Notes under the pieces: model-generated
What the model was told of the DNA's origin: nothing
The model's input: only the letters and a program-made list of their open reading frames with translations
Databases searched by the model: none
Translations under genes and position numbers: made by a program
Source: an uncultured Pseudomonadota bacterium
GTDB lineage: Bacteria; Babelota; Babeliae; Babelales; RVW-14
DNA length: 64,000 nt
NCBI GenBank assembly: GCA_964568625.1
Contig: CAZMQG010000001.1
Location: 19,393 to 83,392 of the forward strand
Direction: 5' to 3'
In this document: piece by piece, positions 537 through 53,504 of the stretch
Layout: each line of letters begins with the position of its first letter
How positions within the stretch are numbered: position 1 is the first letter of the stretch

Positions 537-3500
537 TTAAGCAAGCCGCGCTTTAAGCATCTCAAAATAAGGAGTTGTTCCATCTAAAATTATGGTTTTA
601 ATCTGCTCTTTATAACCAATGTGTAGATAACTAGTTTTTAAAACACCATCTACAATCCAATCAGAATTCTTACCGACATTAAATTCTGTTTGCAAAAAGT
701 AAATTGTTAAATTAAAGGCAAATCTTATTGAATTTAGATCCTTATAAAAATACCGGGTTCCTGATTTCAATTTAAAACTCTCAGAATCAAATTCGGTTAT
801 CTCTAATTTTTTGTGAAAATCGCTGTTCTTAATACCAGAATAAAGATCAGGATTAGAATTTTTATATCGACTAATACATAAAAATGCAACTTCAAACCGA
901 TGTAGCTCGTTAATATTTAGACCAAGCATATTTTTTATAACAGGATTGGTTTGCGACGGAGATTGAAAATCAACATACACAAAACACCTAGCCAAACTAA
1001 AATAAAAATACTGTTTTGAGGCATTGTCATAATCAGTATTTTTATTTAACTCATAAAATATTCGTGAATTAAAATCATCAACAAAATTATTCTTCTGTTT
1101 ATTAATCTCAGCATAATATTTCAATAAGATTGCGATTCCTAAACCATACAAATCAAAAAGTTGCGAATTTTTCCAAATACGTTGCTGATCTTGAGTCAAA
1201 TTCAATAATTTTAAAATTTCAGCCCACACAAGTTTGGCCGAGGCTACTGACAAATTTGAAACCAACATCTGCCCCAATATTATTTTCATGTCAGTATCAA
1301 GCAATTTAAAATTTCCATTTAATACTTTTAATTTCGTGTTAATTGTCGATTCGCCAGAAGATAAAGAATTAATCAAATCGGTTAAAGCAGTAATTTGAAC
1401 TTTATATTTTGATTGGGCTGCAATAGATTTAACCATAAGCATCTCTGAAAATTTTTTCAGTATTTTTTCGGTTTCACTTCTAAGTACATGAGCAATTCCA
1501 GGTTCATCTTCAACAGTTATATAACCACCACCTAAAACATAAAACTTTGAATCATCAAGGGCATTCATGCTTTGCATAATTTGATAAATATTTTGCCAAA
1601 CCACACTTGCAAGTTGCTCCGTAGAAATAAAATCTCCACCATTAAATTTATCTGCAATTTTCGTAAAATTAGTTGATTTGAAATATAAATTGTGAATTAA
1701 ATAAATCAAAATATAAGATAAATTCAACTTTTGAGTTTCATCAAGTACTGGATCATTAAAATAAAAAGATTCTACAAAATCAATTCTTAATTTATCTATA
1801 TTTTTTTTCTCAAATTTCAGTTTTGCGACTCCATTTGCAATATCATCTTTAACCCGATTACTAACTAAAGAAAATTTTTCTGCTACTATTCTTAAATCAT
1901 CTGTCGTATTTTTTTTGCCATCAAAATTTTTAATTATCGAAAAAACCTCTTTTCCCGCTATTTTTTGCACATCATCCTTTGGCTCTATGCCTGTATCAAT
2001 TTGTTCACCTGATAGCTTCTTTTTTAAAACTACTAATTTTTGTTGCAACTCATTTAATTTAAATTTAAAATTACCCAGTAATACTTTTAATTTTTTTAGT
2101 TTAGTTTTTAACGCTCTAGATGCATCTTCCCCTAACCCCGTTTTTGTAATAGCAAAACTTGTACCTGAAGTAACATATTTTTCAAATTTATCAAAATCTA
2201 GATTTAACAAATAATCTTTCAATGACAGCTTTTCTTTTGTAGCACTTCCAGCCGTTTTTAAAACTTGTTTTATATCGCTCTGATGTAAGTTTTTTAGTTC
2301 AGAAATGCGGTGAACATACGCATCCAAATCCAATTTAGTAAAATCCCCCAATCCGAATGAGCCAAGTTTATCGCTAAAATCTTCTGGAGATATTTTGGTA
2401 AATTTCCACAAAGCATTAGCCATCGGTTTATCGGTTTTATAAAGACTGGAATCCGTCGTAAAATTCCAATATTCACCCGCAAATTCAAACGCTATATAAA
2501 CATTGGATTTATCAGTTCTTCCATCAAAACTTGTTTTTATAAATACATTGTGAAGCGTTATTTTTTCGTTTTTATTTAAAGACAAGGCTTTTTTGAAATC
2601 ACCACTGCTTGAACCCAAAACTTTATCAAAGTCATTATATCCACATAATTCTTTGATAAAAAAAGTTTTTTGACTTTCTCTTCCTTGCAAATTCAAAAAA
2701 GAGTTGCGTATAAAGCTCAAAATACCAGTTTTCACGCCTCCTGCCATAACAGCACTTTCAATACTCACTTTTGAAAGTAAATGCAATGCATCACCACGTT
2801 GCATTGAGATAATTGATGGATAAAAATATAAAGGACTGGAAGCCTTAGTCCAATCAATATTAATACTATCAGTTGTTGGAAAATATGAGCTCCATGTTTT
2901 TAACCAATCAGGAACTGGCATATAATTTTTATGCAAAACCACACCAATCATTTTTTCACTCAATTGAATATTTCCATTATCAATATCAATTTTTTTGGGA
3001 GAAATTTTAAGTTCAACAGAAGTAATTGCAGGATATAAAAGTAAAGCTAATTTTTGATTAACATCTATGGTCGCCATTTGTGACTCGGAAAACTTCATTT
3101 TTTTTAATTTGGTTCTTTTTTTCCAATTCGATAGTTCAGTTTCAAATTCTGGCTTAGCCAAAACTTTAGCAATACTTGCATCAGTTATCTTTTGTATATC
3201 AGGATCAATGTCAAAATATTGAAACCACCCAACATTTGGAATCAAAACTTGGGGAATGTTGTTTATACCTAATCCACTTAAAAACCAATAATTCGAAAGT
3301 GTAAGTTTTTTCAAAACTCCTTTTAACCACGACTGTTTATCACCTTTTCTCCAATGCATCTCAAGAGCCTGAAAAAATCCATTTACATCTATGCTTGGGT
3401 CAATCAATTCCCCTGACTCAATTTTTTCCGGGTGGCTCGAAATAATGGGGGCGTCCGAAACAGCCGAAATAATCAAGATGTATTTAAGATTCATAGAAAC

Positions 3501-4307
3501 TTTTTGATCATCCAAATCTTTTCTAAACTGCATAAAATCAAGATTTTGTCCTCCGGATGAACATGTAAAAATTAAAACAGTATTAATATAAAGTTCATTT
3601 AAGAAATTCAAAACATCTGTAACTAAACTACTTTCAAGCCCAGCAATAGCTTGTCCAACATTTCCATGCCCATTCAAAACAATATTAACAGGGCGCAAAA
3701 AAGATGTTAGCTTTACATCAACAAGATCATCTGAGTTTTTAGTGATATTTTGTCTAAATTGCTCAAATCTAGAATCTTCATGCAAATCGCTTTCAGTAAC
3801 AAAAATATTTTTAAAAGAATCCAAGTTATACAAAGGATTTGGGGAATTATAATCTCTTATCTTCAAAAAATTATTGTCTTTATAAGAGTCAATTGGAATC
3901 CACTTAGATGCGTCATAAATTTTTATAATATTTGATTTTTCAACATCGTCTTTTCGAATTTTTAAAACAAGCGCAAAAAAATCCGTATCTTTTATTCCAT
4001 AAACCATCCAATCATCCGGCTTAAAATCTATGGACGCAAAAAAAACATCCTTACTCAGTCGTTTTTCAACAAAAATTTTCAAAATATTAACTGAGGCAAT
4101 TATAATATCAGACGCTTTTTGATGTATGTTTATAGCAAGCCCATTAGTAATAGCAAGCTTAGCAGAAGATACTTTTTCAGCCTTAAAAGAATCTATGTAA
4201 AATGCAACTCTTAGTGGCTTAGGGTCCCCAACTGTTTTTGCTGCAAAAATATTTGAATTTACAACAAAAAAAAATATACAAAACAACCCAACCGCCAACT
4301 TGCACAT
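537..4307 (-). CDS. giant secreted hypothetical protein (1256 aa) with clan-CD-peptidase-like His/Cys motif pair and a coiled-coil-like segment
   Basis: Uninterrupted 3.8-kb ORF. Signal-like N-terminus MCKLAVGLFCIFFFVVNSNIFAA. Hydrophobic strand plus HG (RPVNIVLNGHGNVG, His codon 3668..3666) is followed 35 aa later by hydrophobic strand plus C (NTVLIFTCSSGG, Cys codon 3563..3561). K/L-rich stretch KTKLKKLKVLLGNFKFKLNELQQKLVVLKKKL. No family recognised by eye. Confidence 0.55.
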   Translation of the reverse strand: MCKLAVGLFCIFFFVVNSNIFAAKTVGDPKPLRVAFYIDSFKAEKVSSAKLAITNGLAINIHQKASDIIIASVNILKIFVEKRLSKDVFFASIDFKPDDWMVYGIKDTDFFALVLKIRKDDVEKSNIIKIYDASKWIPIDSYKDNNFLKIRDYNSPNPLYNLDSFKNIFVTESDLHEDSRFEQFRQNITKNSDDLVDVKLTSFLRPVNIVLNGHGNVGQAIAGLESSLVTDVLNFLNELYINTVLIFTCSSGGQNLDFMQFRKDLDDQKVSMNLKYILIISAVSDAPIISSHPEKIESGELIDPSIDVNGFFQALEMHWRKGDKQSWLKGVLKKLTLSNYWFLSGLGINNIPQVLIPNVGWFQYFDIDPDIQKITDASIAKVLAKPEFETELSNWKKRTKLKKMKFSESQMATIDVNQKLALLLYPAITSVELKISPKKIDIDNGNIQLSEKMIGVVLHKNYMPVPDWLKTWSSYFPTTDSINIDWTKASSPLYFYPSIISMQRGDALHLLSKVSIESAVMAGGVKTGILSFIRNSFLNLQGRESQKTFFIKELCGYNDFDKVLGSSSGDFKKALSLNKNEKITLHNVFIKTSFDGRTDKSNVYIAFEFAGEYWNFTTDSSLYKTDKPMANALWKFTKISPEDFSDKLGSFGLGDFTKLDLDAYVHRISELKNLHQSDIKQVLKTAGSATKEKLSLKDYLLNLDFDKFEKYVTSGTSFAITKTGLGEDASRALKTKLKKLKVLLGNFKFKLNELQQKLVVLKKKLSGEQIDTGIEPKDDVQKIAGKEVFSIIKNFDGKKNTTDDLRIVAEKFSLVSNRVKDDIANGVAKLKFEKKNIDKLRIDFVESFYFNDPVLDETQKLNLSYILIYLIHNLYFKSTNFTKIADKFNGGDFISTEQLASVVWQNIYQIMQSMNALDDSKFYVLGGGYITVEDEPGIAHVLRSETEKILKKFSEMLMVKSIAAQSKYKVQITALTDLINSLSSGESTINTKLKVLNGNFKLLDTDMKIILGQMLVSNLSVASAKLVWAEILKLLNLTQDQQRIWKNSQLFDLYGLGIAILLKYYAEINKQKNNFVDDFNSRIFYELNKNTDYDNASKQYFYFSLARCFVYVDFQSPSQTNPVIKNMLGLNINELHRFEVAFLCISRYKNSNPDLYSGIKNSDFHKKLEITEFDSESFKLKSGTRYFYKDLNSIRFAFNLTIYFLQTEFNVGKNSDWIVDGVLKTSYLHIGYKEQIKTIILDGTTPYFEMLKARLA

Positions 4308-8312: not shown

Positions 8313-9614
8313 ATGTTTCATGCGATTAAGCGCGCTCTGTGGGGCGACATTTCAGGAGAAGAGTTCAAACGGTTTGGACTATTATCTCTGACATTTTTGT
8401 TCATTATTGGTACATATTGGTTGATGAGACCTCTAAAAGACGGTCTTTTTATTAAGATTGTTGGCGCAAGCTACATTCCTTGGGCAAAAATTGCATCTTT
8501 CCTATTTATTGTTCCACTAATTTTGATCTACTCCAAGTTGGTTGACTTAGTCGCAAAACAAAAGCTCTTTTACATTATATGCACATTTTACGCATTACTA
8601 TTCTTTTTAATTTCATTTGCTCTAAGACACCCTACTATCGGACTTGCAAACACAGTTCCTGGTGCAGATAGACTTCTTGGTTGGATTATATATCTTTCAA
8701 TCGAAAGTTTTGGTTCTTTAGTAGTTGCGTTATTTTGGTCATTTGTTGCAAGTTCAACAGATACGTCATCTGCTAAAAAAGGTTATGCCCTAATTATTTC
8801 AGGCGCACAACTTGGTTCTATTGCCGGACCATTTTTGGCAAGTAATGCAAAAAGCTTTGGAATGCCTTTGTTAACAATTTTTGTTGCAATCGGAATCCTA
8901 ATTGTTCCTATGCTCATCAAATTGTTTATCACAGTTAACCCAAGCGCAGCTGAAGTAGCCCCTACTTCAACAGAAAAGAAAACCGGAATTATTGAAGGAT
9001 TAAAACTTCTTCTAACAAGACCATATTTGGCAGGTATTCTTGGCGTTGCAACATTGTACGAAATTATCGGAACAATCATCGACTATCAAATGAAGATGTC
9101 AGCTGAACAGGCTTTCCCTACCCCAGAAGCAATCACACAATTCCTTGGAAACTTTGGTATGGCTGCCAACAGCTTGGCACTTGTATTTGCATTAGTTGGA
9201 ACAAGCTTTTTCATCAGAAAGTTTGGGTTAACATTCTGCTTAGTTGCATTCCCAGTAACAATCGGAATCGTTGTTGGATGTGTATGGGCAATTCCAGGAA
9301 TCTGGGTATTGTTTGGAGCAATGGTTGCAATCAAGGGATTGAGCTATGCATTAAATAATCCATGCAAAGAAATTATGTACATCCCAACAAGTAAAGATGC
9401 TAAATTCAAAGCAAAAGGTTGGATTGATATGTTTGGTGGAAGATCCGCAAAAGCAGCCGGATCAGGCATCAACGCATTCTTTACAACTTTGTCAGAATTA
9501 ATGTTCTTCGGTTCAATCATCTCTCTTGGAATCGTAGGAATCTGGATTGTAGTTGCATTGTATGTCGGTAAGACAAACAAAAAACTTACAGAATCAGGTA
9601 CTATTATTAGCTAA
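8313..9614 (+). CDS. tlc: TLC-family nucleotide (ATP/ADP) transporter
   Basis: Polytopic membrane protein. The N-terminal region EEFKRFGLLSLTFLFIIGTYWLMRPLKDGLFIKIVGASYIPWAKIASFLFIVPLILIYSKLVD follows the TLC/NTT signature (F-x-Y-x-LR-x-KD ... G-A-E-x-IP-F-x-K ... Y-x-KL). At 433 aa it is shorter than canonical ~500-aa Tlc proteins. AAGGAG SD. Confidence 0.75.
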   Translation: MFHAIKRALWGDISGEEFKRFGLLSLTFLFIIGTYWLMRPLKDGLFIKIVGASYIPWAKIASFLFIVPLILIYSKLVDLVAKQKLFYIICTFYALLFFLISFALRHPTIGLANTVPGADRLLGWIIYLSIESFGSLVVALFWSFVASSTDTSSAKKGYALIISGAQLGSIAGPFLASNAKSFGMPLLTIFVAIGILIVPMLIKLFITVNPSAAEVAPTSTEKKTGIIEGLKLLLTRPYLAGILGVATLYEIIGTIIDYQMKMSAEQAFPTPEAITQFLGNFGMAANSLALVFALVGTSFFIRKFGLTFCLVAFPVTIGIVVGCVWAIPGIWVLFGAMVAIKGLSYALNNPCKEIMYIPTSKDAKFKAKGWIDMFGGRSAKAAGSGINAFFTTLSELMFFGSIISLGIVGIWIVVALYVGKTNKKLTESGTIIS

Positions 9615-18444: not shown

Positions 18445-19383
18445 TTAATATTTAACCCCAACGTATGCAAAAAGAGGGTCATGCAATTTGCATCCAGTTC
18501 GTTCACTAAATTTGATGGGAATCTGTAGTATCGGAGCAGAAAGTTGTTTATTAAACTCATAAAATTCGCCTTCAACCAAATACCCATAAACTCCGCCTAT
18601 TCTTAATAAACTGTTATGCTGAATAGTCAAAAATGGTTCTAGCGGCTTGTGTGTAAAATCTGATGCAATAAGCAGATCGCTTTGCGCCATTTCACCATGT
18701 TTAATTTGCAAAGCATATTCACTTATATCGTCATAAAAATCACACTTTAATTTTAAACTAAGCATGCAACATTCTTTTAAATATGAAAACCAATACAAAA
18801 ACTGAAAAAACATAGCACTAAGCTCGTCAAATCGCAGGTAATATTCGTTAGTCACAGGCATAGCAACAAAATAAGGCTTATATAAATCATCAATAAGATT
18901 GATTTGTATATTCAAAAAACCGCAATCAATTAATTTTGTAACAATAACAAGAGCCTCAAATAACCTTCCGGCTCCCAAAACTGTTACTGTAAGAATATGA
19001 TCTCTTTGTTCAAACGCTCGTCTTACCTGTGACACAATTGCAAGATCAAACACCCCTCTTCGCTCCGGAAATTTAGTTCGATCAAGTTTACTACAAAAAC
19101 ATTCTCCCAAAAAGCCTAATACGTGCTCATCTCTTTTACTTTTAAATTCACGTATTTCAGAAATAAGCATCGCGACCGGCATGTGGGGTGTTCCTGGCGC
19201 AAATGCTTTATCCATAACACTTTTTATATGACTAAATTGCGTTAATTCACCATCACTAAAAGGCTTAGAATATCGTCCAAGCTCAATCGAACAATGTCCA
19301 GCATGACAGATATTATCAATAGACATAAGAAAAGACAAAATATAAAAAATAGAAGCGTTGCGCTTAATATTAAACATGCTCAT
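18445..19383 (-). CDS. hypothetical protein with N-terminal hydrophobic segment; weak Rossmann/methyltransferase-like pattern
   Basis: N-terminus ...ASIFYILSFLMSIDNICHA. VTVLGAGRLFEAL ... INLIDD ... DLLIASDF ... LLRIGGVYGYLV loosely follow class-I MTase motif order. Weak. Confidence 0.3.
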   Translation of the reverse strand: MSMFNIKRNASIFYILSFLMSIDNICHAGHCSIELGRYSKPFSDGELTQFSHIKSVMDKAFAPGTPHMPVAMLISEIREFKSKRDEHVLGFLGECFCSKLDRTKFPERRGVFDLAIVSQVRRAFEQRDHILTVTVLGAGRLFEALVIVTKLIDCGFLNIQINLIDDLYKPYFVAMPVTNEYYLRFDELSAMFFQFLYWFSYLKECCMLSLKLKCDFYDDISEYALQIKHGEMAQSDLLIASDFTHKPLEPFLTIQHNSLLRIGGVYGYLVEGEFYEFNKQLSAPILQIPIKFSERTGCKLHDPLFAYVGVKY

Positions 19384-21672: not shown

Positions 21673-22149
21673 ATGAGATATTCGTTTAAATCCGGGCTCG
21701 GTTTTGGAATTACATCCGGAGTTATCACAACATTGGGACTCCTTGTAGGACTAAATGCCGGAACACAATCTAAGTTGGCAGTTATCGGTGGAATTTTAAC
21801 AATTGCCATCGCGGATACACTTTCAGATTCACTTGGAATGCATATCTCAAAAGAATTTGAATGCCGAACAACAGCAAAAGAAAACTGGGAAGCCACACTC
21901 GTAACATTTTTTTCCAAATTTTTTGTAGCTCTATCATTTATAGTCCCAACGATATACATGGATCTTGAAAAAGCAATAAAAGTTGGTGTCTTATGGGGAC
22001 TTTTCCTTCTCTGTGCATTCAGTTATGTTATAGCAAAAGATAGAAAAGCAAACCCTTTGTATGTCATGGGTGAGCATGTTTTGATAGCATCTGTTGTAAT
22101 ATTAACTGTCCAAATTGTTGGAAATTTCATTAGAAATATTCTTATTTGA
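21673..22149 (+). CDS. small VIT1/CCC1-like membrane protein (putative Fe/Mn transporter family)
   Basis: 158 aa with 4-5 TM segments. GFGITSGVITTLGLLVGL...LTIAIADTLSDSLGMHISKE resembles the VIT-family core. Confidence 0.45.
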   Translation: MRYSFKSGLGFGITSGVITTLGLLVGLNAGTQSKLAVIGGILTIAIADTLSDSLGMHISKEFECRTTAKENWEATLVTFFSKFFVALSFIVPTIYMDLEKAIKVGVLWGLFLLCAFSYVIAKDRKANPLYVMGEHVLIASVVILTVQIVGNFIRNILI

Positions 22150-22160: not shown

Positions 22161-23213
22161 CTAACCCAAAGGATCTGGCCAGAAAAAAAGAACTCCACAG
22201 TCTAGTTTCTCTTTACAAATCAAATCATTTAGCATGTCTCTTGTATCTCCCGCAATTTTTCTTATCAAAGGACTATCCAAACATTCTCTGTAAAAATCAT
22301 CACATAAAAACCAAGAATCACAATAGTTTACATAAGCCATGCAATGTCCATAAAATGGTTGTGCTAATTTTTCAAAATAAACCGCTTGCTTAGTTGCACA
22401 TTTAACAGCTTTTAATTTATAGACTTTTTTAGTACTAATTTTAAAAGAAATTTGAGAAAACACAGATTCAAACCCAGATACAATTTCATAAAAAATCTCT
22501 GGCGCATAAATTAAATCTGATACATGTTTTACCACAAAAAGATCCAATGATGGAATAAAAAGAAAAAAGAAATCCAATCCGTAATCATTAAATCCATGAA
22601 TAGGTAGATTCAAATCTCCATAAACATATTGAATTCCATTATCAATGGGTAAACGCGTTATTTCTTTTAAAGCTATAATAGATTTTTTTTCGTGAGAATA
22701 AAAAAAAGCATGAAGTTCTGAATCCACTATTTCTTTTAATAAAAGGTATTCAGACAACAATACAATACCACCAAACCCACAATCCCAAAACTCTTGGTAA
22801 TACATGCTGTTCATATATTTAAAGATCTCCCAGCATGGAGTATTTGAACAATTAATTATATGTTCACGTAATTCTGAAATTCTTAAATCTGAAAGTCTTT
22901 TCGAAGGTTCTCTTAAAAAAGACATTAATAACTCTTCATTGCAAGTAAATTTTTTAAGATTTTCTCTTAATATTTTTAATTGAACTTCCAACTCATTTTT
23001 AGGCTCTTTTGTTTGATCTATATATGAACAAAATTGGGGAGACTGCAATAAACATTGTAAGGTTGCATTACAAAAACAAATACCTCTTTCTGCGTCATTA
23101 TAAAATGGAATAGGAAAGGTAGGTTGCCCAGGCAAAATAATTGAAAAAGCTAAAGAACAAAAGATTAGATTAATGCTTGTTGATAACATTAATAAAAATC
23201 TTATAACTTTCAT
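22161..23213 (-). CDS. eukaryote-type ubiquitin-specific protease (USP/UBP, peptidase C19)-like protein with signal peptide
   Basis: Cys box ERGICFCNATLQCLLQSPQF (Cys46, codon 23078..23076). His box YKLKAVKC...FYGHCMAYVNYCDSWFLCDDFY (His290, codon 22346..22344). N-terminus MKVIRFLLMLSTSINLIFCSLAFS. Confidence 0.65.
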   Translation of the reverse strand: MKVIRFLLMLSTSINLIFCSLAFSIILPGQPTFPIPFYNDAERGICFCNATLQCLLQSPQFCSYIDQTKEPKNELEVQLKILRENLKKFTCNEELLMSFLREPSKRLSDLRISELREHIINCSNTPCWEIFKYMNSMYYQEFWDCGFGGIVLLSEYLLLKEIVDSELHAFFYSHEKKSIIALKEITRLPIDNGIQYVYGDLNLPIHGFNDYGLDFFFLFIPSLDLFVVKHVSDLIYAPEIFYEIVSGFESVFSQISFKISTKKVYKLKAVKCATKQAVYFEKLAQPFYGHCMAYVNYCDSWFLCDDFYRECLDSPLIRKIAGDTRDMLNDLICKEKLDCGVLFFWPDPLG

Positions 23214-23273
23214 AATCTCTCTTTTTAAAAATGATGCAAAAAAATTTTGATAAACACCTAGGAATCTAGGCTC

Positions 23274-23831
23274 CTAGCATAAATTGGCACCCAATTGAAG
23301 TAGAATTGTAACTATTCCTACATACCCCTTGATAGATGCATAAAATAAAGGCGTTTCACCGGAATTATCTTTGGCATTTACACTCGCACCTCTTGCAAGC
23401 AACAATCTAACCAATCCCTCATGCCCACCAAAGACTGCACAATGTAAAGGGGTAAATCCCAATAATGTTCTATAATTTATCTCCGATCCTTCATCCAAAA
23501 GAATCTGTGCTATATCTTCACGTCCACTACGTGCCGCTAAGTGTAAAGGTATTTCCCCAAATGTTTTTGATGGGATATTAACTAGTGCGCCATTTCTAAT
23601 TAAAAATCGTACTCTTAAAGCATAACCATCTCTAACGGCTTTACAAAGTAAAGTTTCACCTACACAACCATTTTGAGCATTAACATCGCCACCTGCAAGA
23701 ATTAGTTTTGTAATTTCCGTAAAATAGATTGTGTCTAATGCAATTCCTGCTCTATCCATAGCTTGCAACGCAAAGCCAATAAATAAGACACTATGTATTA
23801 CACTAATCAAATATATATTTTTAAAATTCAT
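23274..23831 (-). CDS. ankyrin-repeat protein with signal peptide
   Basis: Start trimmed to MNFKNIYLISVIHSVLFIGFALQA (ATG 23831). Four to five ANK repeats: GETLLCKAVRDGYALRVRFLIRNGALVN, EIPLHLAARSGREDIAQILLDEGSEIN, FTPLHCAVFGGHEGLVRLLLARGASVN, ETPLFYASIKGYVGIVTILLQLGANL. Confidence 0.85.
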   Translation of the reverse strand: MNFKNIYLISVIHSVLFIGFALQAMDRAGIALDTIYFTEITKLILAGGDVNAQNGCVGETLLCKAVRDGYALRVRFLIRNGALVNIPSKTFGEIPLHLAARSGREDIAQILLDEGSEINYRTLLGFTPLHCAVFGGHEGLVRLLLARGASVNAKDNSGETPLFYASIKGYVGIVTILLQLGANLC

Positions 23832-23866
23832 AGCAAATTTAGCCTCATGCCATATAAATGTTACAC

Positions 23867-24556
23867 TCAAAAAACTAAAATTAATGCCCATGTTAGTAAG
23901 ACCGTAAAAAAAACAGAGTCAAACCGATCGAGAAAACCTCCATGCCCAGGTAGCACATTACCAACATCTTTTAAGCCTTTACGTCGTTTTAAAATGGAAA
24001 TTAACATACCACCAAGAAATGCTACCACTGTAAAAATTAACGACATTAAAAGAGTTATTGTAATTGTTAAAATAGTTATTTTGGAAAAATAATAACTAAT
24101 AGGTTCAATTTTAATTTTTGGTAAAATAAAGATGTTTAAAAGTAACACACCTACAAAGCTACCAAAAAATCCTTCCCAAGACTTGCCGGGACTAACTTTT
24201 GGGTAAATCTTATGAACACCCCATGTCTTTCCAAAAAAATATCCAAATGTATCAGCTGTCCATGCAACCAAAAATGGATACAAAGGAAGAAACAAATCAA
24301 TATAATGAAATCGATAGTTAAGAGAAATTAAACTTAACACCGGTAAAATTGGATAAAAAACGGTTACTATCCATGAATATGGGGAATCAAAATTAACAAG
24401 TTTTGGCCATTCAAAAATAAGAACCAACGTAAGAATCATAAACAGCAACAATGAGAACATCGCAACTGAATGCAAGTATGCTCCACCAAAACAAAAAACA
24501 AGAATAAGCGATGTAAATAATCGCTTGATAAATTCAGCACTAAAAATAAAAATCAT
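23867..24556 (-). CDS. cdsA: phosphatidate cytidylyltransferase (CDP-diglyceride synthase)
   Basis: C-terminal signature SILKRRKGLKDVGNVLPGHGGFLDRFDS. Multi-TM protein. ATG 24556 forms an ATGA overlap with the truA stop. Confidence 0.85.
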   Translation of the reverse strand: MIFIFSAEFIKRLFTSLILVFCFGGAYLHSVAMFSLLLFMILTLVLIFEWPKLVNFDSPYSWIVTVFYPILPVLSLISLNYRFHYIDLFLPLYPFLVAWTADTFGYFFGKTWGVHKIYPKVSPGKSWEGFFGSFVGVLLLNIFILPKIKIEPISYYFSKITILTITITLLMSLIFTVVAFLGGMLISILKRRKGLKDVGNVLPGHGGFLDRFDSVFFTVLLTWALILVF

Positions 24557-25320
24557 TTCTTGTAAACCACCTTTCGCAAGCAAAGACCACACGCATCAGC
24601 TTTAAGCAATGTTTGCCGTGGATCTGGATTATCTAACAACGTCTTTAGATAGTTTACAGATAAATTATTACGACGTGAAACATCTAATGCATATCCAATC
24701 ATGCGACGAATTTGAAAACGAAGGAAACCAGGACCTTTTACAGACACTCTAAGTATTCCAAATCGATCGAATCTCTCTAATTTTATGCTATCAATTTTTC
24801 GCACGGTATTTTTGTCATCTTCATCTACTTTGCAAAACGATCCAAAATCATGTTCCCCAATATACAAATTCAAAGATTTTTCAAATTTACCTAAATCAAC
24901 CTGATCTATAAACTTGTATAACCATCCATAACGAGCTAAAAATGGCAAAGGGCGCTTTAAAAAAATATGGTAGTAATACGTTTTTTGCTCAACATTAAAA
25001 CACGCATGAAAACCATCTGGAACCGCTTGCAAATCACGAACCAAAACACTTTTGGGAAGCATATTATTCCAGGCTGATTTAATGATATTTAAATCCAAAT
25101 CAATCGCTAGATTAAACATAGCTACCTGCTCCAATGCATGTACCCCTGAATCCGTACGTGATGCACCAATTAAATTTATTTGATAACCAAAGACCTTATG
25201 AAAAGACTCTTCTAACGTGGATGATACGGAAACTGCCTCCGGCTGCTTTTGCCAGCCAAAAAAATCAGTTCCATCATAAGCGACAACCGCTTTTATCTTT
25301 TGATTTTTCAACTTTTGCAT
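24553..25320 (-). CDS. truA: tRNA pseudouridine(38-40) synthase
   Basis: Start trimmed to MQKLKNQKIKAVVAYDGTDFFGWQKQ. Catalytic-Asp motif GASRTDSGVHAL. Confidence 0.85.
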   Translation of the reverse strand: MQKLKNQKIKAVVAYDGTDFFGWQKQPEAVSVSSTLEESFHKVFGYQINLIGASRTDSGVHALEQVAMFNLAIDLDLNIIKSAWNNMLPKSVLVRDLQAVPDGFHACFNVEQKTYYYHIFLKRPLPFLARYGWLYKFIDQVDLGKFEKSLNLYIGEHDFGSFCKVDEDDKNTVRKIDSIKLERFDRFGILRVSVKGPGFLRFQIRRMIGYALDVSRRNNLSVNYLKTLLDNPDPRQTLLKADACGLCLRKVVYKK

Positions 25321-25580
25321 ATTTTTCCCCAAACTTGAGTTCTTTTTTGCAAAACAGAAATTTTTAACACTAAGATTATTATCCCCATAAAAATTAAGTA
25401 CCCCCATCCAGGCGAACGCCTCGGACAGGGGAAATGGAGGTTATCAAGATTTATTTCAATCCGATCATACAATACATACATAAAAAAATCAAACTATTTC
25501 TTCCCAAATTTTGCATAAGTAATTTTTACCTCTAAAACTATTTCAGTTAATGTATTTAATGTAAGCCAAAGACCAAAAAT

Positions 25581-26780: not shown

Positions 26781-29198
26781 TTATTCAAAATCCCCGCCTT
26801 GACCACCTTGAGGATTAACACCATTGGTTTCTTTATCAAAAAATGTCACTAATTTTTTACTGCGTGACGGATGACGCAACTTGCGCAAAGCCTTAACTTC
26901 GATCTGACGAATACGTTCTCGAGTAACTGAAAAATCTTTGCCCACCTCTTCAAGAGTATGCTCAGATGCAACATCTATTCCAAAACGCATCTTCAACACT
27001 TTTTCTTCTCGTGGGGTAAGAGATTTTAAAACCTCGCGAACCTTTTCTTTTAGGTCTTCATTAACAACCGCATCAACAGGTGAATACTCATTCTCATCTT
27101 CAATAAAGTCTTTTAATGAGGTATCATCGCTGTCTCCAACCGGAGTTTCAAGTGATACAGGCTCTTTTGAAATCTTAATAATATTTTTGATCTTTTTCTC
27201 ATCAAGATTCAATTCTTTAGCTAACTCGGCATAACTTGGTTCACGGCCAGCTTCCTGAATATACGTACGTGTTATTTTATTTATTTTGCTTAATGTTTCA
27301 ACCATGTGAACAGGAACACGAATGGTACGAGACTGGTCTGCAATTGCTCGAGTTATAGCCTGACGAATCCACCAAGTTGCATAAGTTGAAAACTTAAATC
27401 CTCGTTCGAATTCAAATTTTTCAACAGCCTTAAGCAATCCAATATTACCTTCTTGAATCAAATCCAAAAAATGTAACCCTCTGTTTATATATTTTTTTGC
27501 AATGTTAACTACCAGTCGCAAGTTTGCACGAGCCAAATCGTCTTTTGCTTCTTTATCTTTATGCTGAGCCTTTACAAACTGCTTATACAAAGACATCATT
27601 TTGTCTTTTGAAAGCCCGGCTTCCTGCTCTGTTTTTTTAATCATTTTATAAGAACTACGAACTGAAGCATCAAGGGCGGCCAACTGTCCCAAATCATCTT
27701 GAGTTGGTTTTTTTATTCCCTTATAGAATTTGAGTTTTTCCTCGCCAATCTTAATTTCAGATTCGCGTTCTTGAACTTTGGCAATCAACTTTTCAATTCG
27801 TTTCCCAAACTTTCTTATCAATTTGTTTGAAAACTTAATCTCACCAATGGCCTGAATTACCTTTTTCTTATTTTCCTCTACCTTTGCCAACATCTCTTTC
27901 TTTTTAGATTCATTTGAGAGCTGAGGTCGATATGAATGATAAATTTTATCTTCATTTTCAATAAGATTTTTGATTTTACCAATCTGCCCTAAAAGCCTAC
28001 TTCGCTCTTCCTCAAATTTTGGAGAATTATCTTCATCAAAATCAGAAAACTGAATGACATCCTTCAAAAACATTGGATCTCGACCAAGTCGCTCTTCAAA
28101 TCCTATTAATTCTTTGGCTACAAAAGGAAATTTAGAAATAGAATCAATAGAGTCGCGCTTACCTTGAGCAATTTTATCGGCAATAACTTTTTCTGTTGTT
28201 TTATTTAAAAGCGGAATTTTTCCAATCTCTTTTAGATAAAGTTTAACCGGATCATTTAACTGGCTAGGTTCAATCAAGCCTCTAAGCTTCTCTAACTCTT
28301 TATCATGCTCAGACTCTTCTTCAAACCCTGAGTACTCAGTCCTTTCCAATGACGATTTTAAATCCTTAGTCATTGGAGCAAAGGAGGCAACTTCATGCTG
28401 TTCCAAAAATACGTCTGCCTCTCCTCCACCAGCCTCAAGCTCTTCCTGCATTATCAGGTCAATGTTTTCTTTTTCAAGAATTCCTAAAAGCTCATTTGTC
28501 TCTTCTTCACCGATTTTGTGTTTTGTAGTAAAAAGAATTAATTCTTCATAACTCAAAACACCGTCACACTTACCTTTTTCAATCAATGCAGCAACTTGTT
28601 TTTCTACACTTTTAAGAGTATTTCCCGAAACATCACCATCCTCAATGTCAACAATGGCAAGATCTTCTTCTTCAACATTGACATCTTCCGGCAAATGTCC
28701 TTCGTCGTCCCCTCCAACACGCTTAGCTACAACATCCGCTTCTTTTTTATCATGAATCAACTTCTTAACAGCTTCCTTTGACTCACTGCCGGACGTTAAA
28801 CTTTTTTTATCGGTTAAAGCGTCAGTAGATCGAACGATTTTACTCTTATTTTTTAAATCTTTTTCTTTTAAAACATTTTTAGTTTTTGATACAGCCTTAA
28901 CCTCCTGTACCTTTTTAGCAACTTCTTTTTTAATAACAACAGGCTTTGCTGCCTGTTTTATCTTAGATGCAACAGGGGCCGCTATTTTTTTTACAACCAC
29001 GGTCTTGGAGGTCGGATACTTTGCAATCACAATCTTAGATTTACCAGCAGATTTAACGGCACTTTTTTTGATAACTTTTTTTGATACAGCCTTAACAACC
29101 ACTTTTGAACTTTTTTTCACACCGAACCTTACAGATTTGGCAGAGGCTTTTGCTCTACTTTTAATAATTTTTTTTGTCTTAGCTAATTTTTTTATCAT
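26781..29198 (-). CDS. rpoD: primary sigma-70 factor with ~130-aa Lys/Ala/Val-rich N-terminal extension
   Basis: Region 2 [54 protein letters not shown], region 4 [31 protein letters not shown]-terminus [53 protein letters not shown]... Confidence 0.9.
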
Positions 29199-41485: not shown

Positions 41486-44400
41486 CTATTTACTTAATGC
41501 GGTCAAATCAGTAGTAACGTCATTAATCATTGTTGTAAACGTTTTTCCACTGGCAACTAATTTTGATGTTACAAGAGTAGCATTTGCATACCAAGCTTTT
41601 AATGCTTCTAGTTTTGTCTTATCTGTCTTCGGTCTTGCATTGTGCAAATTAGTTAAAGCAGTCCAGAAACTGGTCTGAACTGTTGTATAAACTAAAGTCG
41701 AATTTGCAGCTACATTTGTAGCCACACTTGTTACCAAATTTTGTAGCACTAACAATTGTGCATCATAAGTTGAAGTTGTAACTGTAAAACTCTTTAATAT
41801 ACTGTTCACCCTTGATATCTCAATTGCCAATAAGTCTGCATTAATATCACTAATCATTGTTGTAAAATTTTTATCAGCGGCAACTAGTTTTGATGCCGAG
41901 AGAGTTGCATACCAATTGGTTAGGGTTTCATACCAGGACTTTAAAGTAGTTAATTTTGCTTTATCTGTTTTAGGCCTTGCATTATGCAAACTTGTTAATG
42001 CAGCCCAAAAGTTTGCTTGTTCAACTGTGTAGTCAAGCGTCTGATTTGCTTGAAAAGCTGATGCTACACTTGTTACCAAATTGGGCAAAATAGGCAACTG
42101 AGAATCATAAGTTGAAGTTGTAACTGTAAAAGTTTTTAATATATTATCAACTCTTGCCATCTCAGCAGCTGCTATCAAATTTGCAAAATCTGAATTGATG
42201 TCATTAATCATACTAGTAAAATTTTTATTAGCAGCAACTAACTTCGATGCTACTAATGTCGCATACCAAGTATTTAATGTTGTATACCAAGAAATTAAGG
42301 TCGTTAATTTAGTCTTATCCGTTTTAGGCCTTGCATTATGTAAACTTGTTAATGCGGTCCAAAAACTAGTTTGAACAGGTGAGTAATCAAGAGACTGATT
42401 CGCCTGAAAATTCGCAGCTATACTTGTTACCAAATTTGGTAATATCGATAACTGAGAATCATACGTCGAAGCTGTCACAGTAAAATTCTTTAATATACCG
42501 TTAACCCTTGCCATTTCAGCCGCTTGCACTAAAGACTGATCTATTTTTGTAAAATCCGAATTAATATCATTAATCATACTAGTGAAATTTTTACCAGAGG
42601 CAACTAACTTTGATGCAACTAGTGTCGCATACCAGGTATTTAACGTTGTATACCAAGTTTTTAAGGTAGTTAGTTTAGTCTTATCTGATACCGGCCTTGC
42701 GTTATGTAAACTTGTTAATGCGGTCCAAAAACTCGCCTGCACCGGAGTATAGTCAAGAGCCTGATTTGCTTGAAAGTTTCCTGCAATGCTTGCCACCAAA
42801 TTTGGCAGTATTGATAACTGAGAATCATAAGTTGAAGCTGTAACTGTAAAATTATTCAATATATTACTTACTCTTGCCATCTCTGCAGATTGAGCCAAAG
42901 CCTGATCTATCTTTTTAAAATCTGAATCAATATCACTAATCATTGTTGTAAAACTTTTATCAGCAGCAACTAATTTTGATGTTTTAAGAGTTGAGTCTGT
43001 ATACCAACTTTTTAGTGCTGCTAATTTTACCTTATCATTACTAGGTCTAATCTTATGCAAATTAGTTAAAGCCAACCAAAAACTCGGTTGATACTGTGTA
43101 TAATCATACACTGAACTAGCAGGCACACTTTTTGCCAAGTCTTGCAATGCCAATAATTGAGAATCATAACTTGAACTAGCCAAAAGAACATTTGTATTTG
43201 CAGGTGTAAAACTACTTAATATATTATTAACCCTTGTCATTTCAGCAATTTTTACAGCAGACGCTTTATTTGCAACTTCTATATCTGTTCCAAGCTGCAT
43301 TAACCAATTTGCTAAATCCGAATTTTGCGCAAAATTCAAAAAAGATTTATTCATTGCATTATTTATCAAAACTTTTAAATCAGCCAAAGTCGAAGATGTT
43401 CTATTATTATAAAAATTTTTAATTGCAGTATAAATTGAGTTACTAGAACTTGGATAATCCTGTAAAAACGTCTGATTAAACATACCTGTAGAAACACCAA
43501 CAACATTTGCATTCAACAATGCTGGCGTTCCTGATTTTGTTTTATCATTTAATATAGCAGTCAAAGCTGATTTTACTTCATCCACTAGTCTGCCACTCCA
43601 ACTTTTAAGATCAGATTTTTGGGATGAAGTCAAAAAAGCTTTAGATTGAGCATTGTTTAACAATAGCTGCACATCTCCTAATGGATAAAGATTCCTGTTG
43701 TTATAAAAATTTTGAATTATCGTATAAATCGAACGACTTGAGCTTGGATAATTCTGTAAATAAGACTGATTAAAGCTTGAAATTAAATTTATACTCAAAG
43801 AATCAGTCGTACTTGAAGCATCAACAACATTTGCATTCAATAAAGCAGGAGTTCCAGATTTTGTAGAATCATCTAAAATTGCCTTTAAAGAAACTTTTAC
43901 ATCATTTTGCACCTGCATTAAACAATTTTTAATATCATCCTTCTGTGATGAGGTTAAAAATGCTTTATCTTGAGCATTTTTCAATAAAATTTGTAAATCC
44001 CCATATGAGGATGATGTCCTATTATTATAGAAATTTTTAATTGCCGTATAAATAGAACTTCCCAAACTTGGATAATCTTGTAAATATGCCTGATTAAAAA
44101 CATCGTTAGATACTGAAACAATATTCGCATCCAATAAGGCTGGAGTACCAGATTTTGTAACATCTCCAAGGATTGCCACCAAGGATGATTTAACAGCTTC
44201 CGTTACAGCACTCGTTTGCTGAGAAACAGCCTGCACAGTAGTAGATATCGTAGATGGAACAACAACCGGTACGGCAGAAGTCAGCCGTGGCAATTGAGTT
44301 TGGGTTGTCGCAGCAACAATTTGAGTTGCAACCGGTTGAGCAACAGCCTGTACCTGTGATTGCTGAGTTTGTGTTTTAGCCTGTGCCTGTAATTGAGCCT

Positions 44401-45220
44401 GCAACTGCTGTGCTTGTAACTGCTGAGCTTGTAATTGAGCTTGCAGTTGTTGAGCTTGTAATTGAGCTTGCAGTTGTTGTGATTGTAGCTGTGCTTGCGC
44501 TTTTAACTGTTGAGCTTGCAATTGCTGAGCCTGTAATTGAGACTGAAGTTGCTGCGTTTGTAACTGAGACTGAGCATCTTGCCCCACTGAAGAAGTTATA
44601 GGGGTAGTTAACGGAACCGTTGATGATACACGTGTAGCATAAGCATCTGATGATAACCCCGAAGTTGTTGTAAGTCCTCCAGTAGAAACAACACCTGATG
44701 TAGGCGTAGTACCTGAACCTGATGTAGACACCAAATCTGACGTCGATCCCAAAATGGATTGCCCTGGAAGACTAGATCCAGTAGCAGATGAAGTTGAATC
44801 CGATAATAAATCTAAAAGCAATTGGTCTTGTGCTTGCGCCAAAGGTAACTTATCTGATAAAGATCCCGATTGTAATGACAAGTCTTGCGGAATTCCACTT
44901 GTAGGCAAAGATATTCCCGACGCTTGAGATTCTTTAGAAACTCCAACATCACCAGATGGCTCCAATAATTCTGATGACAAATCTTGAATAGAACTATCTT
45001 GAAAAGGCTCACCTTGTATAGTTAATTTTTGATTAGAATTTGTTGATTCCCCTGAACCGGCAATATCCCCAGATTGTTTTAATAAATCTAACGATAAATC
45101 TTGGGAAAAAAAATTCTGATCAGTATTTGAAGAATATACAGACTGATTTGTCGCCAAGTACATTCCTGTAACCATAATAAAGACCAGTATCGTTGACATC
45201 TCTATTGAATGCCACTTCAT
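41486..45220 (-). CDS. 1244-aa repeat-built surface/secreted protein (orphan)
   Basis: N-terminal hydrophobic anchor STILVFIMVTGMYLA. Short QDLS..LL..SGD repeats, an S/T/G-rich linker, a Q-rich (QLQAQ)n tract, then 3 + 5 long tandem repeats (see repeat features). Confidence 0.8.
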   Translation of the reverse strand: MKWHSIEMSTILVFIMVTGMYLATNQSVYSSNTDQNFFSQDLSLDLLKQSGDIAGSGESTNSNQKLTIQGEPFQDSSIQDLSSELLEPSGDVGVSKESQASGISLPTSGIPQDLSLQSGSLSDKLPLAQAQDQLLLDLLSDSTSSATGSSLPGQSILGSTSDLVSTSGSGTTPTSGVVSTGGLTTTSGLSSDAYATRVSSTVPLTTPITSSVGQDAQSQLQTQQLQSQLQAQQLQAQQLKAQAQLQSQQLQAQLQAQQLQAQLQAQQLQAQQLQAQLQAQAKTQTQQSQVQAVAQPVATQIVAATTQTQLPRLTSAVPVVVPSTISTTVQAVSQQTSAVTEAVKSSLVAILGDVTKSGTPALLDANIVSVSNDVFNQAYLQDYPSLGSSIYTAIKNFYNNRTSSSYGDLQILLKNAQDKAFLTSSQKDDIKNCLMQVQNDVKVSLKAILDDSTKSGTPALLNANVVDASSTTDSLSINLISSFNQSYLQNYPSSSRSIYTIIQNFYNNRNLYPLGDVQLLLNNAQSKAFLTSSQKSDLKSWSGRLVDEVKSALTAILNDKTKSGTPALLNANVVGVSTGMFNQTFLQDYPSSSNSIYTAIKNFYNNRTSSTLADLKVLINNAMNKSFLNFAQNSDLANWLMQLGTDIEVANKASAVKIAEMTRVNNILSSFTPANTNVLLASSSYDSQLLALQDLAKSVPASSVYDYTQYQPSFWLALTNLHKIRPSNDKVKLAALKSWYTDSTLKTSKLVAADKSFTTMISDIDSDFKKIDQALAQSAEMARVSNILNNFTVTASTYDSQLSILPNLVASIAGNFQANQALDYTPVQASFWTALTSLHNARPVSDKTKLTTLKTWYTTLNTWYATLVASKLVASGKNFTSMINDINSDFTKIDQSLVQAAEMARVNGILKNFTVTASTYDSQLSILPNLVTSIAANFQANQSLDYSPVQTSFWTALTSLHNARPKTDKTKLTTLISWYTTLNTWYATLVASKLVAANKNFTSMINDINSDFANLIAAAEMARVDNILKTFTVTTSTYDSQLPILPNLVTSVASAFQANQTLDYTVEQANFWAALTSLHNARPKTDKAKLTTLKSWYETLTNWYATLSASKLVAADKNFTTMISDINADLLAIEISRVNSILKSFTVTTSTYDAQLLVLQNLVTSVATNVAANSTLVYTTVQTSFWTALTNLHNARPKTDKTKLEALKAWYANATLVTSKLVASGKTFTTMINDVTTDLTALSK
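41489..43246 (-). repeat. five in-frame tandem repeats of 112-122 codons (family B)
   Basis: Units start on the minus strand at 43246, 42886, 42520, 42166 and 41824 (anchor AEM(A/T)RV / IEISRV). Consensus AEMARVNxILKNFTVTASTYDSQLSILPNLVTSIAxNFQANQxLDYxPVQxSFWTALTSLHNARPKTDKTKLTTLKxWYTTLNTWYATLVASKLVAxxKNFTSMINDINSDF. The three middle copies are also highly similar at DNA level. Confidence 0.9.
43250..44200 (-). repeat. three in-frame tandem repeats of ~98-108 codons (family A)
   Basis: Anchor KSGTPALL(D/N)AN(I/V)V at about 44156, 43863 and 43538. Shared FNQ.YLQ(D/N)YPS...SIYT.I(K/Q)NFYNNR...L...L(K/N)NA..K(A/S)FL(T/N).(S/A)Q(K/N).D(I/L). Confidence 0.85.
44340..44590 (-). repeat. Gln-rich low-complexity tract incl. 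a perfect 27-nt tandem duplication (44425-44451 / 44452-44478)
   Basis: Encodes QSQLQTQQLQSQLQAQQLQAQQLKAQAQLQSQQLQAQLQAQQLQAQLQAQQLQAQQLQAQLQAQAKTQTQQSQ. The plus strand shows GAGCTTGTAATTGAGCTTGCAGTTGTT twice in a row. Confidence 0.9.
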
Positions 45221-52820: not shown

Positions 52821-53504
52821 ATGATTTCAACAAAGCTCAGAGTTAAAGAGTATCTAAGAGAACGTCGTTGGACAACAAAAGTCCTGGCTGAAAAAACCGG
52901 GATGTCCGAAAGTTATCTAACTCATATAAAAAATGGAACACGTCGCTGGAATGAAGATGCACTTAAAAAATTAGCTGAAGCTTTCGAAGTTGAGGCAACA
53001 GATCTTTTTGAAACATCAAACCAAAGTCGCAAAGATCTTCCAATAAACATTCAAATTCCAGACGAAATTAAAAATCAACTTTCAAATTACACTCTAAAAT
53101 TAAAAATCGTTCCTGTGGTAGGCCAAATTCCGGCTCAACCATCAGCTTACAATAATCAGCTGATCCAAGTATCATCCGGATACAAAGATCAATTTGTAAC
53201 AGTACTTGATAGCGATGATGAAAACATGTTCTGCTTATCAGTTGACGATAACAACATGGCACCTAATTTCGTAAAAGGTGACTTACTAGTTGTTTCTCCA
53301 TCCACATGGACAAATTCCGGCGACATAGTTGCTGTTGAATATGGAACAGAAACACCTGTTAGAGCCATCATGCAAGTAAACTTTATGGACGACCTGGTTG
53401 TCCTTGAAGCAGTTAACCATAAAAAAGCTCCAATTGCTCTCTCAAGAGGCAAGGATCAATTCAGAATTATTGGAAAAGTAATTCACAGATTCCAAAAAAT
53501 ATAA
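52821..53504 (+). CDS. XRE-HTH + S24 (LexA/CI)-like repressor with apparently substituted catalytic dyad
   Basis: HTH WTTKVLAEKTGMSESYLTHIKNGTRRWNEDALKKLAEAF. C-terminal S24-like fold VPVVGQIPAQP...FCLSVDDNNMAPNFVKGDLLVVSP...GDIVAVEY...PVRAIMQV...IIGKVI. By-eye alignment with E. coli LexA puts Asn145 (53253..53255) at Ser119 and Arg at Lys156. Confidence 0.6.
   Translation: MISTKLRVKEYLRERRWTTKVLAEKTGMSESYLTHIKNGTRRWNEDALKKLAEAFEVEATDLFETSNQSRKDLPINIQIPDEIKNQLSNYTLKLKIVPVVGQIPAQPSAYNNQLIQVSSGYKDQFVTVLDSDDENMFCLSVDDNNMAPNFVKGDLLVVSPSTWTNSGDIVAVEYGTETPVRAIMQVNFMDDLVVLEAVNHKKAPIALSRGKDQFRIIGKVIHRFQKI

Follow-up and report, generated by a model that had tools for sequence, protein, structure and literature searches.

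The window analysed here is a 64-kb stretch of bacterial DNA, and the gene under study is a 350-amino acid (aa) open reading frame (ORF) on its minus strand, whose product resembles the ubiquitin-specific proteases (USPs), a family of eukaryotic deubiquitinases (DUBs). The minus-strand gene order at this locus is truA, cdsA, an ankyrin-repeat (ANK) gene and the USP-like gene. The features of the locus are as follows.

22161..23213, minus strand: USP-like (C19-like, clan CA) cysteine protease gene, a 350-aa ORF with an ATG start
22296..22349, minus strand: His box of the USP-like protein, G289-H290-C291-MAYVNYCDSWFLC-D305-D306, containing invariant residues, with its register taken from hhalign against USP7
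23055..23099, minus strand: Cys box of the USP-like protein, N39-DAERGI-C46-FCNATLQ53, containing invariant residues, the stretch matched by Pfam UCH
23142..23213, minus strand: predicted Sec signal peptide, residues 1-24 of the USP-like protein, with a K2/R5 n-region and then a hydrophobic h-region
23258..23277, minus strand: weak terminator-like hairpin over the ANK stop codon, from a consensus scan only (7-bp stem, poor T tail)
23274..23831, minus strand: ankyrin-repeat gene of 185 aa, with a signal peptide and four ANK repeats (Pfam Ank), lineage-variable
23867..25320, minus strand: truA and cdsA, co-oriented housekeeping genes 5' of the ANK gene (Pfam PseudoU_synth_1 and CTP_transf_1)
24556..23867, minus strand: cdsA
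about 25320..24553, minus strand: truA

An earlier model-made annotation of the same letters (the sequence-only reading) had reported the 350-aa ORF, the codons of its two putative catalytic residues, and a co-oriented ankyrin gene 60 nucleotides (nt) away. All of these positions proved exact: codon 46 is TGT (23078..23076), codon 290 is CAT (22346..22344), and the gap between the two genes is exactly 60 nt. The same reading had placed the pair behind truA-cdsA, and both housekeeping genes were identified as such by Pfam. We set the ANK start at the ATG at 23831, 35 nt from the cdsA stop (23867), because the orthologues at loci L001 and L009 begin at MNFKN/MKFKN; the mechanical ORF extends 20 codons further, to 23891. 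A consensus scan found a single minus-strand promoter-like site upstream of truA-cdsA (25492..25464), and a strong internal promoter or terminator, sought in the same way between the ANK and USP-like genes, was represented only by the weak hairpin listed above. The truA-cdsA synteny is kept in L001, L004 and L009.

Beyond the USP-like gene lie a convergent gene for a small VIT-like membrane protein and, past it, MVD and PMK of the mevalonate pathway. The VIT-like gene (21673..22149, plus strand) encodes 158 aa, and its stop codon is 11 nt from that of the USP-like gene. Its match to the VIT1 iron transporter is weak (19.9 bits, under the cut-off), and the protein is highly conserved across all syntenic loci.

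Direct comparison of the USP-like ORF with Pfam, which the sequence-only reading had proposed as a check, did return the UCH family (PF00443), with 19.6 bits and an E value of 7.7e-4 over residues 45-81 (the Cys box only), but this is below the gathering cut-off of 23.9 bits. No competing Pfam family was found on the ORF, and a single-sequence search of the PDB returned nothing for either the window ORF or the family protein P0015. The link to the USPs was supplied by relatives of the ORF. A word-indexed search of 5.8 billion sequences found seven family proteins, and just 10 proteins were matched at E<=1e-3 when a profile was run against 1.8 billion representative proteins. Among these representatives, the core-family profile reached P0012 at E 1e-11, and P0013, P0014 and P0015 at about 3e-4. 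The latter three proteins exceed the Pfam UCH cut-off themselves, with 29.8, 34.3 and 36.7 bits, respectively, and the P0015 match spans essentially the whole model. Alignment of the core family (nine sequences) with the P0013-P0015 group by hhalign gave a probability of 99.3% (E 2.2e-20) over 277 columns, starting at the signal peptide and reaching the final strand.

Across the family, PF00443 was found at E<=1 in 9/13 members, with no rival family. A profile of the 13 sequences had 32 matches in the PDB at E<=10, all of which were USPs or Burkholderia TssM; the best was USP30 (E 0.004), and the others included USP36, 8, 28, 5, 14, 1, 47, 15 and 12. Word-indexed profile searches added P0016 alone, a metagenome scan added three loci, all belonging to the close clade, and the 64-kb window contains one Cys-box/His-box motif pair only. 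The USP/UCH profile relationship suggested earlier is, therefore, supported by way of P0013-P0015 and by PDB matches confined to USPs and TssM. We regard it as well supported that the window ORF encodes a remote but genuine homologue of the USP-fold (C19-like) cysteine proteases; its membership of the USP fold is well supported, though not as a close family member.

Judging from the sequences recovered, the family appears so far only in Candidatus Babeliales (Dependentiae). The sole match in a species-level genome collection was a metagenome-assembled genome titled Candidatus Babeliales bacterium, and GCA_043808975.1 contains a further orthologue under the label 'hypothetical protein'. Dependentiae live as obligate parasites inside protist cells (PMC4378268, PMC6561590), and the 34.5% GC content of the window, its TLC ATP/ADP translocase gene, its many ORFans and its ankyrin genes all fit this phylum. 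The translocase gene (8313..9614, plus strand; TLC family, Pfam E 7.7e-29) is a marker of energy parasitism, consistent with obligate intracellular life. The branch of the family to which the window protein belongs carries the annotation 'hypothetical protein', and no NCBIfam model matches it. Neither NCBIfam nor PADLOC gave a match for the USP-like protein, which argues against a component of a known defence system. A bacterial ubiquitin-like conjugation operon was also considered and rejected, as no E1, E2 or ubiquitin-like protein (Ubl) genes are found nearby.

The fold was modelled with AlphaFold2. A first model built from seven sequences had a predicted local distance difference test (pLDDT) score of 66 and no significant fold match, Pan2 and HAUSP being weak matches at E about 0.1. 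It was superseded by a model from 13 sequences, with pLDDT 82.6 and a predicted template-modelling score (pTM) of 0.84. The N-terminal half of this model is helical (helices 46-166), with Cys46 opening the first helix (46-55), and the C-terminal half is beta-rich, with His290 and Asp305 on adjacent strands. Between thumb and palm, in a position equivalent to the USP fingers, the model has five beta strands (168-230); this region contains no Cys, and hence no zinc ribbon.

USPs rank at the top of both structure databases to which the model was compared. In a Foldseek search of the PDB, the top three matches were USP28, USP28 and USP25 (E 7.5e-3 to 2.9e-2, probability 0.89-0.63). Against BFVD, the top three had E values of 3.8e-5 to 1.1e-4, a probability of 1.00 and template-modelling (TM) scores of 0.38-0.50, and two of them are compact USPs (about 300 aa) from Abalone asfa-like virus and Fadolivirus; the match ranked second is unnamed. 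The best of them had E 3.8e-5, probability 1.00 and TM 0.44/0.50. As modelled, the protein appears to have the thumb, palm, fingers and papain-like core of the USP fold.

Conservation within the family centres on the putative active site. P34, N39, C46, N49, Q53, P59, F170, H290, W301 and D306 are invariant in the 13 sequences, down to 20% identity. The Cys box, C46-F-C-N49-A-T-L-Q53-C-L, is that of a USP. The His box, H290...W301-F-L-C-D305-D306, has the Trp and then the Asp/Asn about 15 residues after the His that are found in USPs. In the hhalign register, G289-H290-C291-M-A-Y294-V-N corresponds to G463-H464-Y465-V-V-Y468-L-N of USP7, and W301-F-L-C-D305-D306 to W477-C-K-F-D481-D482. The alignment to the single USP7 sequence had a probability of 2.5%, too weak to count as evidence by itself, and was used only for fixing the His-box register; the USP7 sequence used matched the PDB at 797 bits, lacks one residue relative to that chain, and is numbered by counting from Cys223. 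Position 305 is D, N or S within the family; we take Asp, Asn and, in USP30, Ser to occupy the third triad position in eukaryotic USPs. Candidate roles suggested by these alignments are oxyanion residue for Asn39, nucleophile for Cys46, and second and third triad residues for His290 and Asp305.

This pattern of conservation bears on whether the protein could be a catalytically dead USP-like pseudoenzyme that acts as a ubiquitin-binding decoy or scaffold. Inactive USP-fold proteins do exist in eukaryotes, Pan2 was among the weak fold matches of the first model, and the family has lost the aromatic motif that is needed for activity in the USPs tested. However, the invariance of Cys46, His290 and Asp306 down to 20% identity, together with the restriction of position 305 to D/N/S, is the pattern expected of an active enzyme. 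The conservation thus indicates an active enzyme rather than a pseudoenzyme, which we think extremely improbable.

The aromatic motif deserves closer attention. The sequence-only reading had recognized both USP boxes by eye, and it was right about the Cys box, His290 and Asp305/Asp306; the His box, however, reads GHC and not GHY. By equating the two, that reading missed the absence of a residue with a defined function. The aromatic 'gatekeeper' of the His-[FYW] motif, as defined by Hermanns et al., packs on ubiquitin Gly75; the motif is absent from UFM1 and ATG8 proteases, is 477-fold enriched in DUBs and Gly-Gly-Ubl proteases, and is a conserved feature of USPs, among them USPL1, which is specific for SUMO (PMC7391069). 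The aromatic residue is needed for activity in USP21, in TssM (Y443A) and in the Simkania enzymes SnUSP1-3 (PMC7391069, PMC10719079, PMC10643670), and in USP21 a Tyr-to-Ala substitution lowered reactivity with wild-type ubiquitin and raised reactivity with the G75V variant (PMC7391069). In the present family, the residue after the catalytic His is Cys in the eight closest sequences (Cys291 of the window protein included), Val in P0011 and P0013, and Ala in P0012, P0014 and P0015. The absence of the gatekeeper throughout the clade is the most unusual feature of the family. Because the aromatic residue is missing, P2 specificity or catalytic efficiency would be expected to differ from that of canonical USPs.

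It is conceivable that the USP-fold protease has been retargeted to a modifier or linkage other than a Gly-Gly peptide or isopeptide, the cause being the small residue in place of the aromatic gatekeeper. Such targets could be ATG8, which ends in Phe-Gly, UFM1, which ends in Val-Gly, or ubiquitin joined by an ester bond to lipid or lipopolysaccharide (LPS). The clade-wide presence of Cys, Ala or Val directly after the His is consistent with such a change, as is the direction of the USP21 Tyr-to-Ala effect, which favours G75V over wild-type ubiquitin (PMC7391069). TssM-type enzymes are reported to be esterases on ubiquitylated LPS (PMC10371091). The family protein P0014 points the other way. 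Despite its His-Ala, it has a sub-threshold match to the ubiquitin-interacting motif (UIM; 17.0 bits against a cut-off of 21, E 0.0049). The UIM-like sequence, DEDLEMAIRMSLEE, fits the UIM consensus by eye, lies at residues about 275-320, C-terminal to the USP-like domain, and has a degenerate second copy beside it. We read this as counter-evidence, in that ubiquitin may still be the target of a protein without the aromatic motif. Simkania Josephins without the motif likewise still cleave ubiquitin chains, slowly (PMC10643670), and an alternative substrate is without direct evidence. We therefore judge retargeting possible but unlikely. The broader proposal to which it leads is, in our view, similarly doubtful: that the gatekeeper-less clade forms a new specificity class of USP-fold proteases, delivered by Sec and the type II secretion system (T2SS), that acts on bulky-P2 modifiers (ATG8/UFM1) or on ester or lipid ubiquitin linkages at the bacterial surface. 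If true, cleavage of bulky-P2 modifiers (ATG8/UFM1) would make the protein a USP-fold functional analogue of autophagy-blocking effectors.

The selective regime of the gene was assessed from its close orthologues. dN/dS values were 0.23-0.25 for the USP-like gene versus 0.13-0.15 for cdsA and MVD. The USP-like gene is under purifying selection, about twice as relaxed as that on cdsA/MVD, and its quicker evolution relative to these housekeeping genes would suit a protein that interacts with the host. It also has the lowest GC content of the 42 window ORFs (29.1%, z -2.55), with 19.4% GC at third codon positions (GC3; z -2.2), a composition that might stem either from foreign ancestry or from relaxed selection on codons. 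Neither the profile search of 1.8 billion representatives nor a pattern scan of IMG/VR revealed a close sequence relative among eukaryotes or viruses. A giant-virus origin was considered and found to be unsupported, as the IMG/VR scan was without viral relatives. The extreme divergence of the family argues against recent transfer, and a host-derived origin is plausible.

We next consider export. Crude Kyte-Doolittle and charge analysis found, in 13/13 family members, an n-region containing K/R, then a hydrophobic h-region, and no membrane segment elsewhere; the ANK protein has an N-terminus of the same type. The first 25 residues are poorly conserved in sequence and retain this character in all 13 proteins; they are followed by the highly conserved PGQPTFPIPFYN. 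Cleavage is likely after A-F-S24 (x-F-A in orthologues), applying the -3/-1 rule by eye, and would give a mature USP-like protein of about 325 aa with ~20 residues from the cleavage site to the Cys box. Sec-type N-termini on both proteins, as claimed by the sequence-only reading, are thus upheld by computation. That reading had also set the Sec type against an obvious effector-secretion signal; its remark on the type is correct, and in this phylum Sec is the expected effector route rather than an anomaly. In Babela, no secretion system other than the T2SS was detected (PMC4378268), the USP-type DUB TssM is secreted through a T2SS (PMC10719079), and Chromulinavorax has signal peptides on 44% of its coding sequences and on 78% of its ankyrin proteins, of which there are 98 copies (PMC6561590).

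A Sec signal combined with no recognized effector-secretion signal would also suit a periplasmic or envelope cysteine protease that acts on bacterial substrates, has a housekeeping role with the cdsA/truA operon, and is unrelated to host ubiquitin. The conserved place of the gene behind cdsA, with a translationally coupled overlap in L004, and the lack of two DUB hallmarks, the aromatic motif and a recognizable Arg72-binding Glu, are in keeping with that role. On the other hand, all detectable relatives are USPs, the clade member P0014 carries the sub-threshold UIM match described above, and the family is confined to obligate intracellular parasites of eukaryotes, for which Sec and T2SS form the expected effector route (PMC4378268). 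The more distant homologues are, in addition, unlinked to cdsA, and the gene evolves faster than its housekeeping neighbours. A purely bacterial role is, in our estimation, very improbable.

The sequence-only reading had proposed that the ANK and USP-like genes form a two-gene module for manipulation of host ubiquitin, in which the ANK protein is the targeting subunit and the USP-like protein the catalytic one. It had counted 4-5 ankyrin repeats; repeats are indeed present, and Pfam finds four (E 7.5e-33). The two genes are adjacent in the window, in L001 (where the USP-like protein has 76% aa identity) and in L009 (74%). At L004, L010 and L011, whose USP-like proteins are about 68-70% identical, the GT-truA-cdsA-USP-VIT-MVD synteny is kept with no ankyrin gene, and there is a 10-nt overlap between cdsA and the USP-like gene. 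The family proteins P0005, P0006 and P0007 have unrelated housekeeping neighbours and no adjacent ankyrin gene, and P0016 has an ankyrin neighbour in divergent orientation.

A sliding comparison of L009 with L004 gave a nucleotide identity of 94-99% through truA-cdsA. Past the cdsA stop, L009 is instead similar to L001 (about 90%), and the USP-like genes of L009 and L004 share only 73-87% identity. The break between L009 and L004 was located at the junction corresponding to window 23831..23867 (L009:1100-1800 versus L004:7900-7950), and the abruptness of the divergence points to a recombination breakpoint at the cdsA 3' end. The comparison implies two putative haplotypes in related populations, one with the ANK gene and a type A USP-like gene, the other with a type B USP-like gene without ANK. 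Given the presence or absence of the ANK gene across syntenic loci, the USP-like gene is the conserved element and the ANK gene is dispensable at the locus.

These data tell against the proposed module. An obligate two-subunit arrangement would be favoured by the close, co-oriented spacing of the genes (a 60-nt gap in the window, L001 and L009), by the apparent joint travel of the ANK and USP-like genes across the recombination breakpoint, and by the (divergent) ankyrin neighbour of P0016; as only two ankyrin genes were found in the 64 kb, their adjacency is not trivially expected. Against it are L004, L010 and L011, where cdsA overlaps the USP-like start and no ankyrin gene intervenes, and the lack of an ankyrin gene adjoining P0005, P0006 and P0007. 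A hairpin also lies between the two genes, and ankyrin proteins with signal peptides are generic in the Dependentiae, as the 98 copies in Chromulinavorax show (78% with signal peptides; PMC6561590). The obligate module is quite improbable on this evidence. We regard the ANK protein as a lineage-specific neighbour, predicted to be separately exported, and not as an obligate subunit, while granting that occasional cooperation with the USP-like protein is conceivable.

The window contains other genes of potential interest. A 312-aa ORFan (18445..19383, minus strand) has an N-terminus resembling a signal peptide and is matched by neither Pfam nor NCBIfam; its orthologue is present in L004 (11840-12778) and missing at that position in L001, making it another variable protein of predicted export close to the mevalonate genes. 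Nearby, a 182-aa protein (17817..18365, plus strand) with a signal peptide and a C-terminal tail rich in Lys, Arg and Ser matches no family and is conserved at both L001 and L004. Four very large ORFs of 1012-1256 aa (537..4307, 41486..45220, 57614..60718 and 60711..63749) may encode further host-interaction or surface proteins; the first three were scanned, and no Pfam match was found in them except a faint DUF5848 on 41486..45220. The second ankyrin gene of the window (53596..54369, plus strand) lies directly 3' of a gene for a helix-turn-helix and Peptidase_S24 (LexA/CI-like) repressor, within the region 52821..54369. Finally, RpoD (26781..29198, minus strand) is 805 aa in length and has an N-terminal extension of ~250 aa, rich in Lys, Ala and Val, that is kept in L001 and L004.

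Taken together, the evidence leads us to favour, with moderate confidence, a model in which the gene encodes a Sec-exported, compact and highly divergent USP-fold protease that strips ubiquitin-type tags in the host. The signal peptide would carry the USP-like protein across the inner membrane; from there, as Babela and Burkholderia TssM suggest by analogy, it could leave for the host through the T2SS or in outer-membrane vesicles. A papain-like triad of Cys46 at the helix start, His290 and Asp305, supported by Asn39 and Asp306, would then hydrolyse the C-terminal linkage of ubiquitin or a Ubl on host or bacterial-surface targets, and this removal may blunt ubiquitin-dependent autophagy or degradation. 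In this model the fold assignment is much better supported than the substrate. The analysis shows how the protein is related in fold and family, that its catalytic residues are conserved, that its N-terminus is like a signal peptide, that purifying selection acts on the gene, and how the locus is built; the secretion route, the host location and ubiquitin as the substrate are what we infer.

Several observations weigh against the favoured model. The direct Pfam UCH score (19.6 against 23.9 bits) falls short of the cut-off and covers the Cys box alone, no fold match in the PDB reaches E<=1e-3, and the TM-scores are 0.3-0.5. Every family member has Cys, Ala or Val where the His-[FYW] motif calls for an aromatic residue. 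A Pfam score above the threshold and the aromatic motif are the two features of a canonical USP that the protein lacks. Asn39 is positioned seven residues before the Cys, versus five in USP7. The USP 'QQDxxEF' region with the Arg72-binding Glu is not recognizable in an alignment that is unreliable there: the segment aligned to 'EEQDAHELF' of USP30 is C122-S-N-T-P-C127-W-E129-I, and Glu129 is not conserved in the family.

The significance of the protein depends in part on the missing gatekeeper. The only characterized bacterial USP DUBs are TssM and SnUSP1-3, all of which keep the aromatic motif, a motif considered almost universal among DUBs specific for Gly-Gly. A clade under selection that has the Cys, His and Asp and lacks the gatekeeper would represent a natural experiment on the role of that residue and on repurposing of the USP fold. 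The protein is also a testable effector candidate for the Dependentiae, a widespread phylum with hardly any cultured members and next to nothing established about how it manipulates its hosts, and could give the first defined effector activity for the group. With its probable route of export, it would illustrate effector delivery by Sec and T2SS alone.

Comparison with eukaryotic USPs (USP7, USP28/25, USP30) reveals the same Cys box, C-[FY]-x-N-[AS]-x-LQCL, a shared His box, Y-x-L-x-AV...GH-x-x-Y...W-x-x-x-[DN]-D, and the same order and spacing of the boxes. The helical thumb followed by a beta-rich palm is shared by the AlphaFold2 model. In contrast to these enzymes, the Babeliales protein falls below the Pfam gathering score, has the non-aromatic Cys291, a longer Asn-to-Cys loop and no recognizable QQDxxEF or Arg72-binding Glu, and lacks the CxxC zinc-ribbon cysteines in strands 168-230. 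It also differs in its N-terminal Sec signal, its bacterial genome and its mature length of ~325 aa. The best structural matches were the viral compact USPs of Abalone asfa-like virus (A0A5K7XYJ8) and Fadolivirus (A0A7D3R0G8), which are about 295-312 aa long; their sequence identity to the Babeliales protein is 10-13%, and there is no evidence of direct transfer.

The sequence-only reading had described USP-type enzymes as uncommon in bacteria. They are rare, but the claim was overstated, as TssM (PMC10719079) and SnUSP1-3 (PMC10643670) have been characterized. Burkholderia TssM (PDB 8ssi, 8pz3) is likewise a compact bacterial USP fold that uses Sec and T2SS and not the type III, IV or VI secretion systems (PMC10719079), the export of the Babeliales protein being predicted. 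TssM is matched by the family profile at its His box only, and weakly (E about 1), and the two proteins have no significant pairwise sequence relationship. TssM has an N-terminal immunoglobulin (Ig)-like domain, no Fingers, a 'Littlefinger' loop and an aromatic Tyr443 needed for activity, whereas the Babeliales protein leaves no space for an Ig domain and has five modelled strands in the finger region and Cys at the aromatic position. With no Ig domain and, in the model, not fingerless, it is not an enzyme of the TssM type.

Simkania negevensis SnUSP1-3, which are active bacterial USPs (PMC10643670), offer a parallel in lifestyle. They too are USP-type proteins of an intracellular bacterium of amoebae (Chlamydia-like) and have hydrophobic N-terminal regions (PMC10643670). 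Unlike the Babeliales family, which is far more divergent and without the gatekeeper, they are large, have 'obvious similarity' to eukaryotic USPs domain-wide, and keep a Tyr gatekeeper whose change to Ala is inactivating (PMC10643670).

Closest in taxonomy are the three C19 proteins of Babela massiliensis, a member of the same bacterial order, which were predicted by Pagnier et al. in 2015 as secreted C19/COG5533 ubiquitin C-terminal hydrolases (PMC4378268). They also have a predicted Sec signal, are genome-annotation predictions only and have never been characterized. They probably match the Pfam-detectable branch of the superfamily (P0013-P0016). If the window protein is an ordinary ubiquitin-specific DUB, it would represent a modest extension of these 2015 predictions. 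By analogy with the systems compared here, the Babeliales protein would work most like the known exported USP-fold thiol proteases of intracellular bacteria, from which it differs by its missing gatekeeper.

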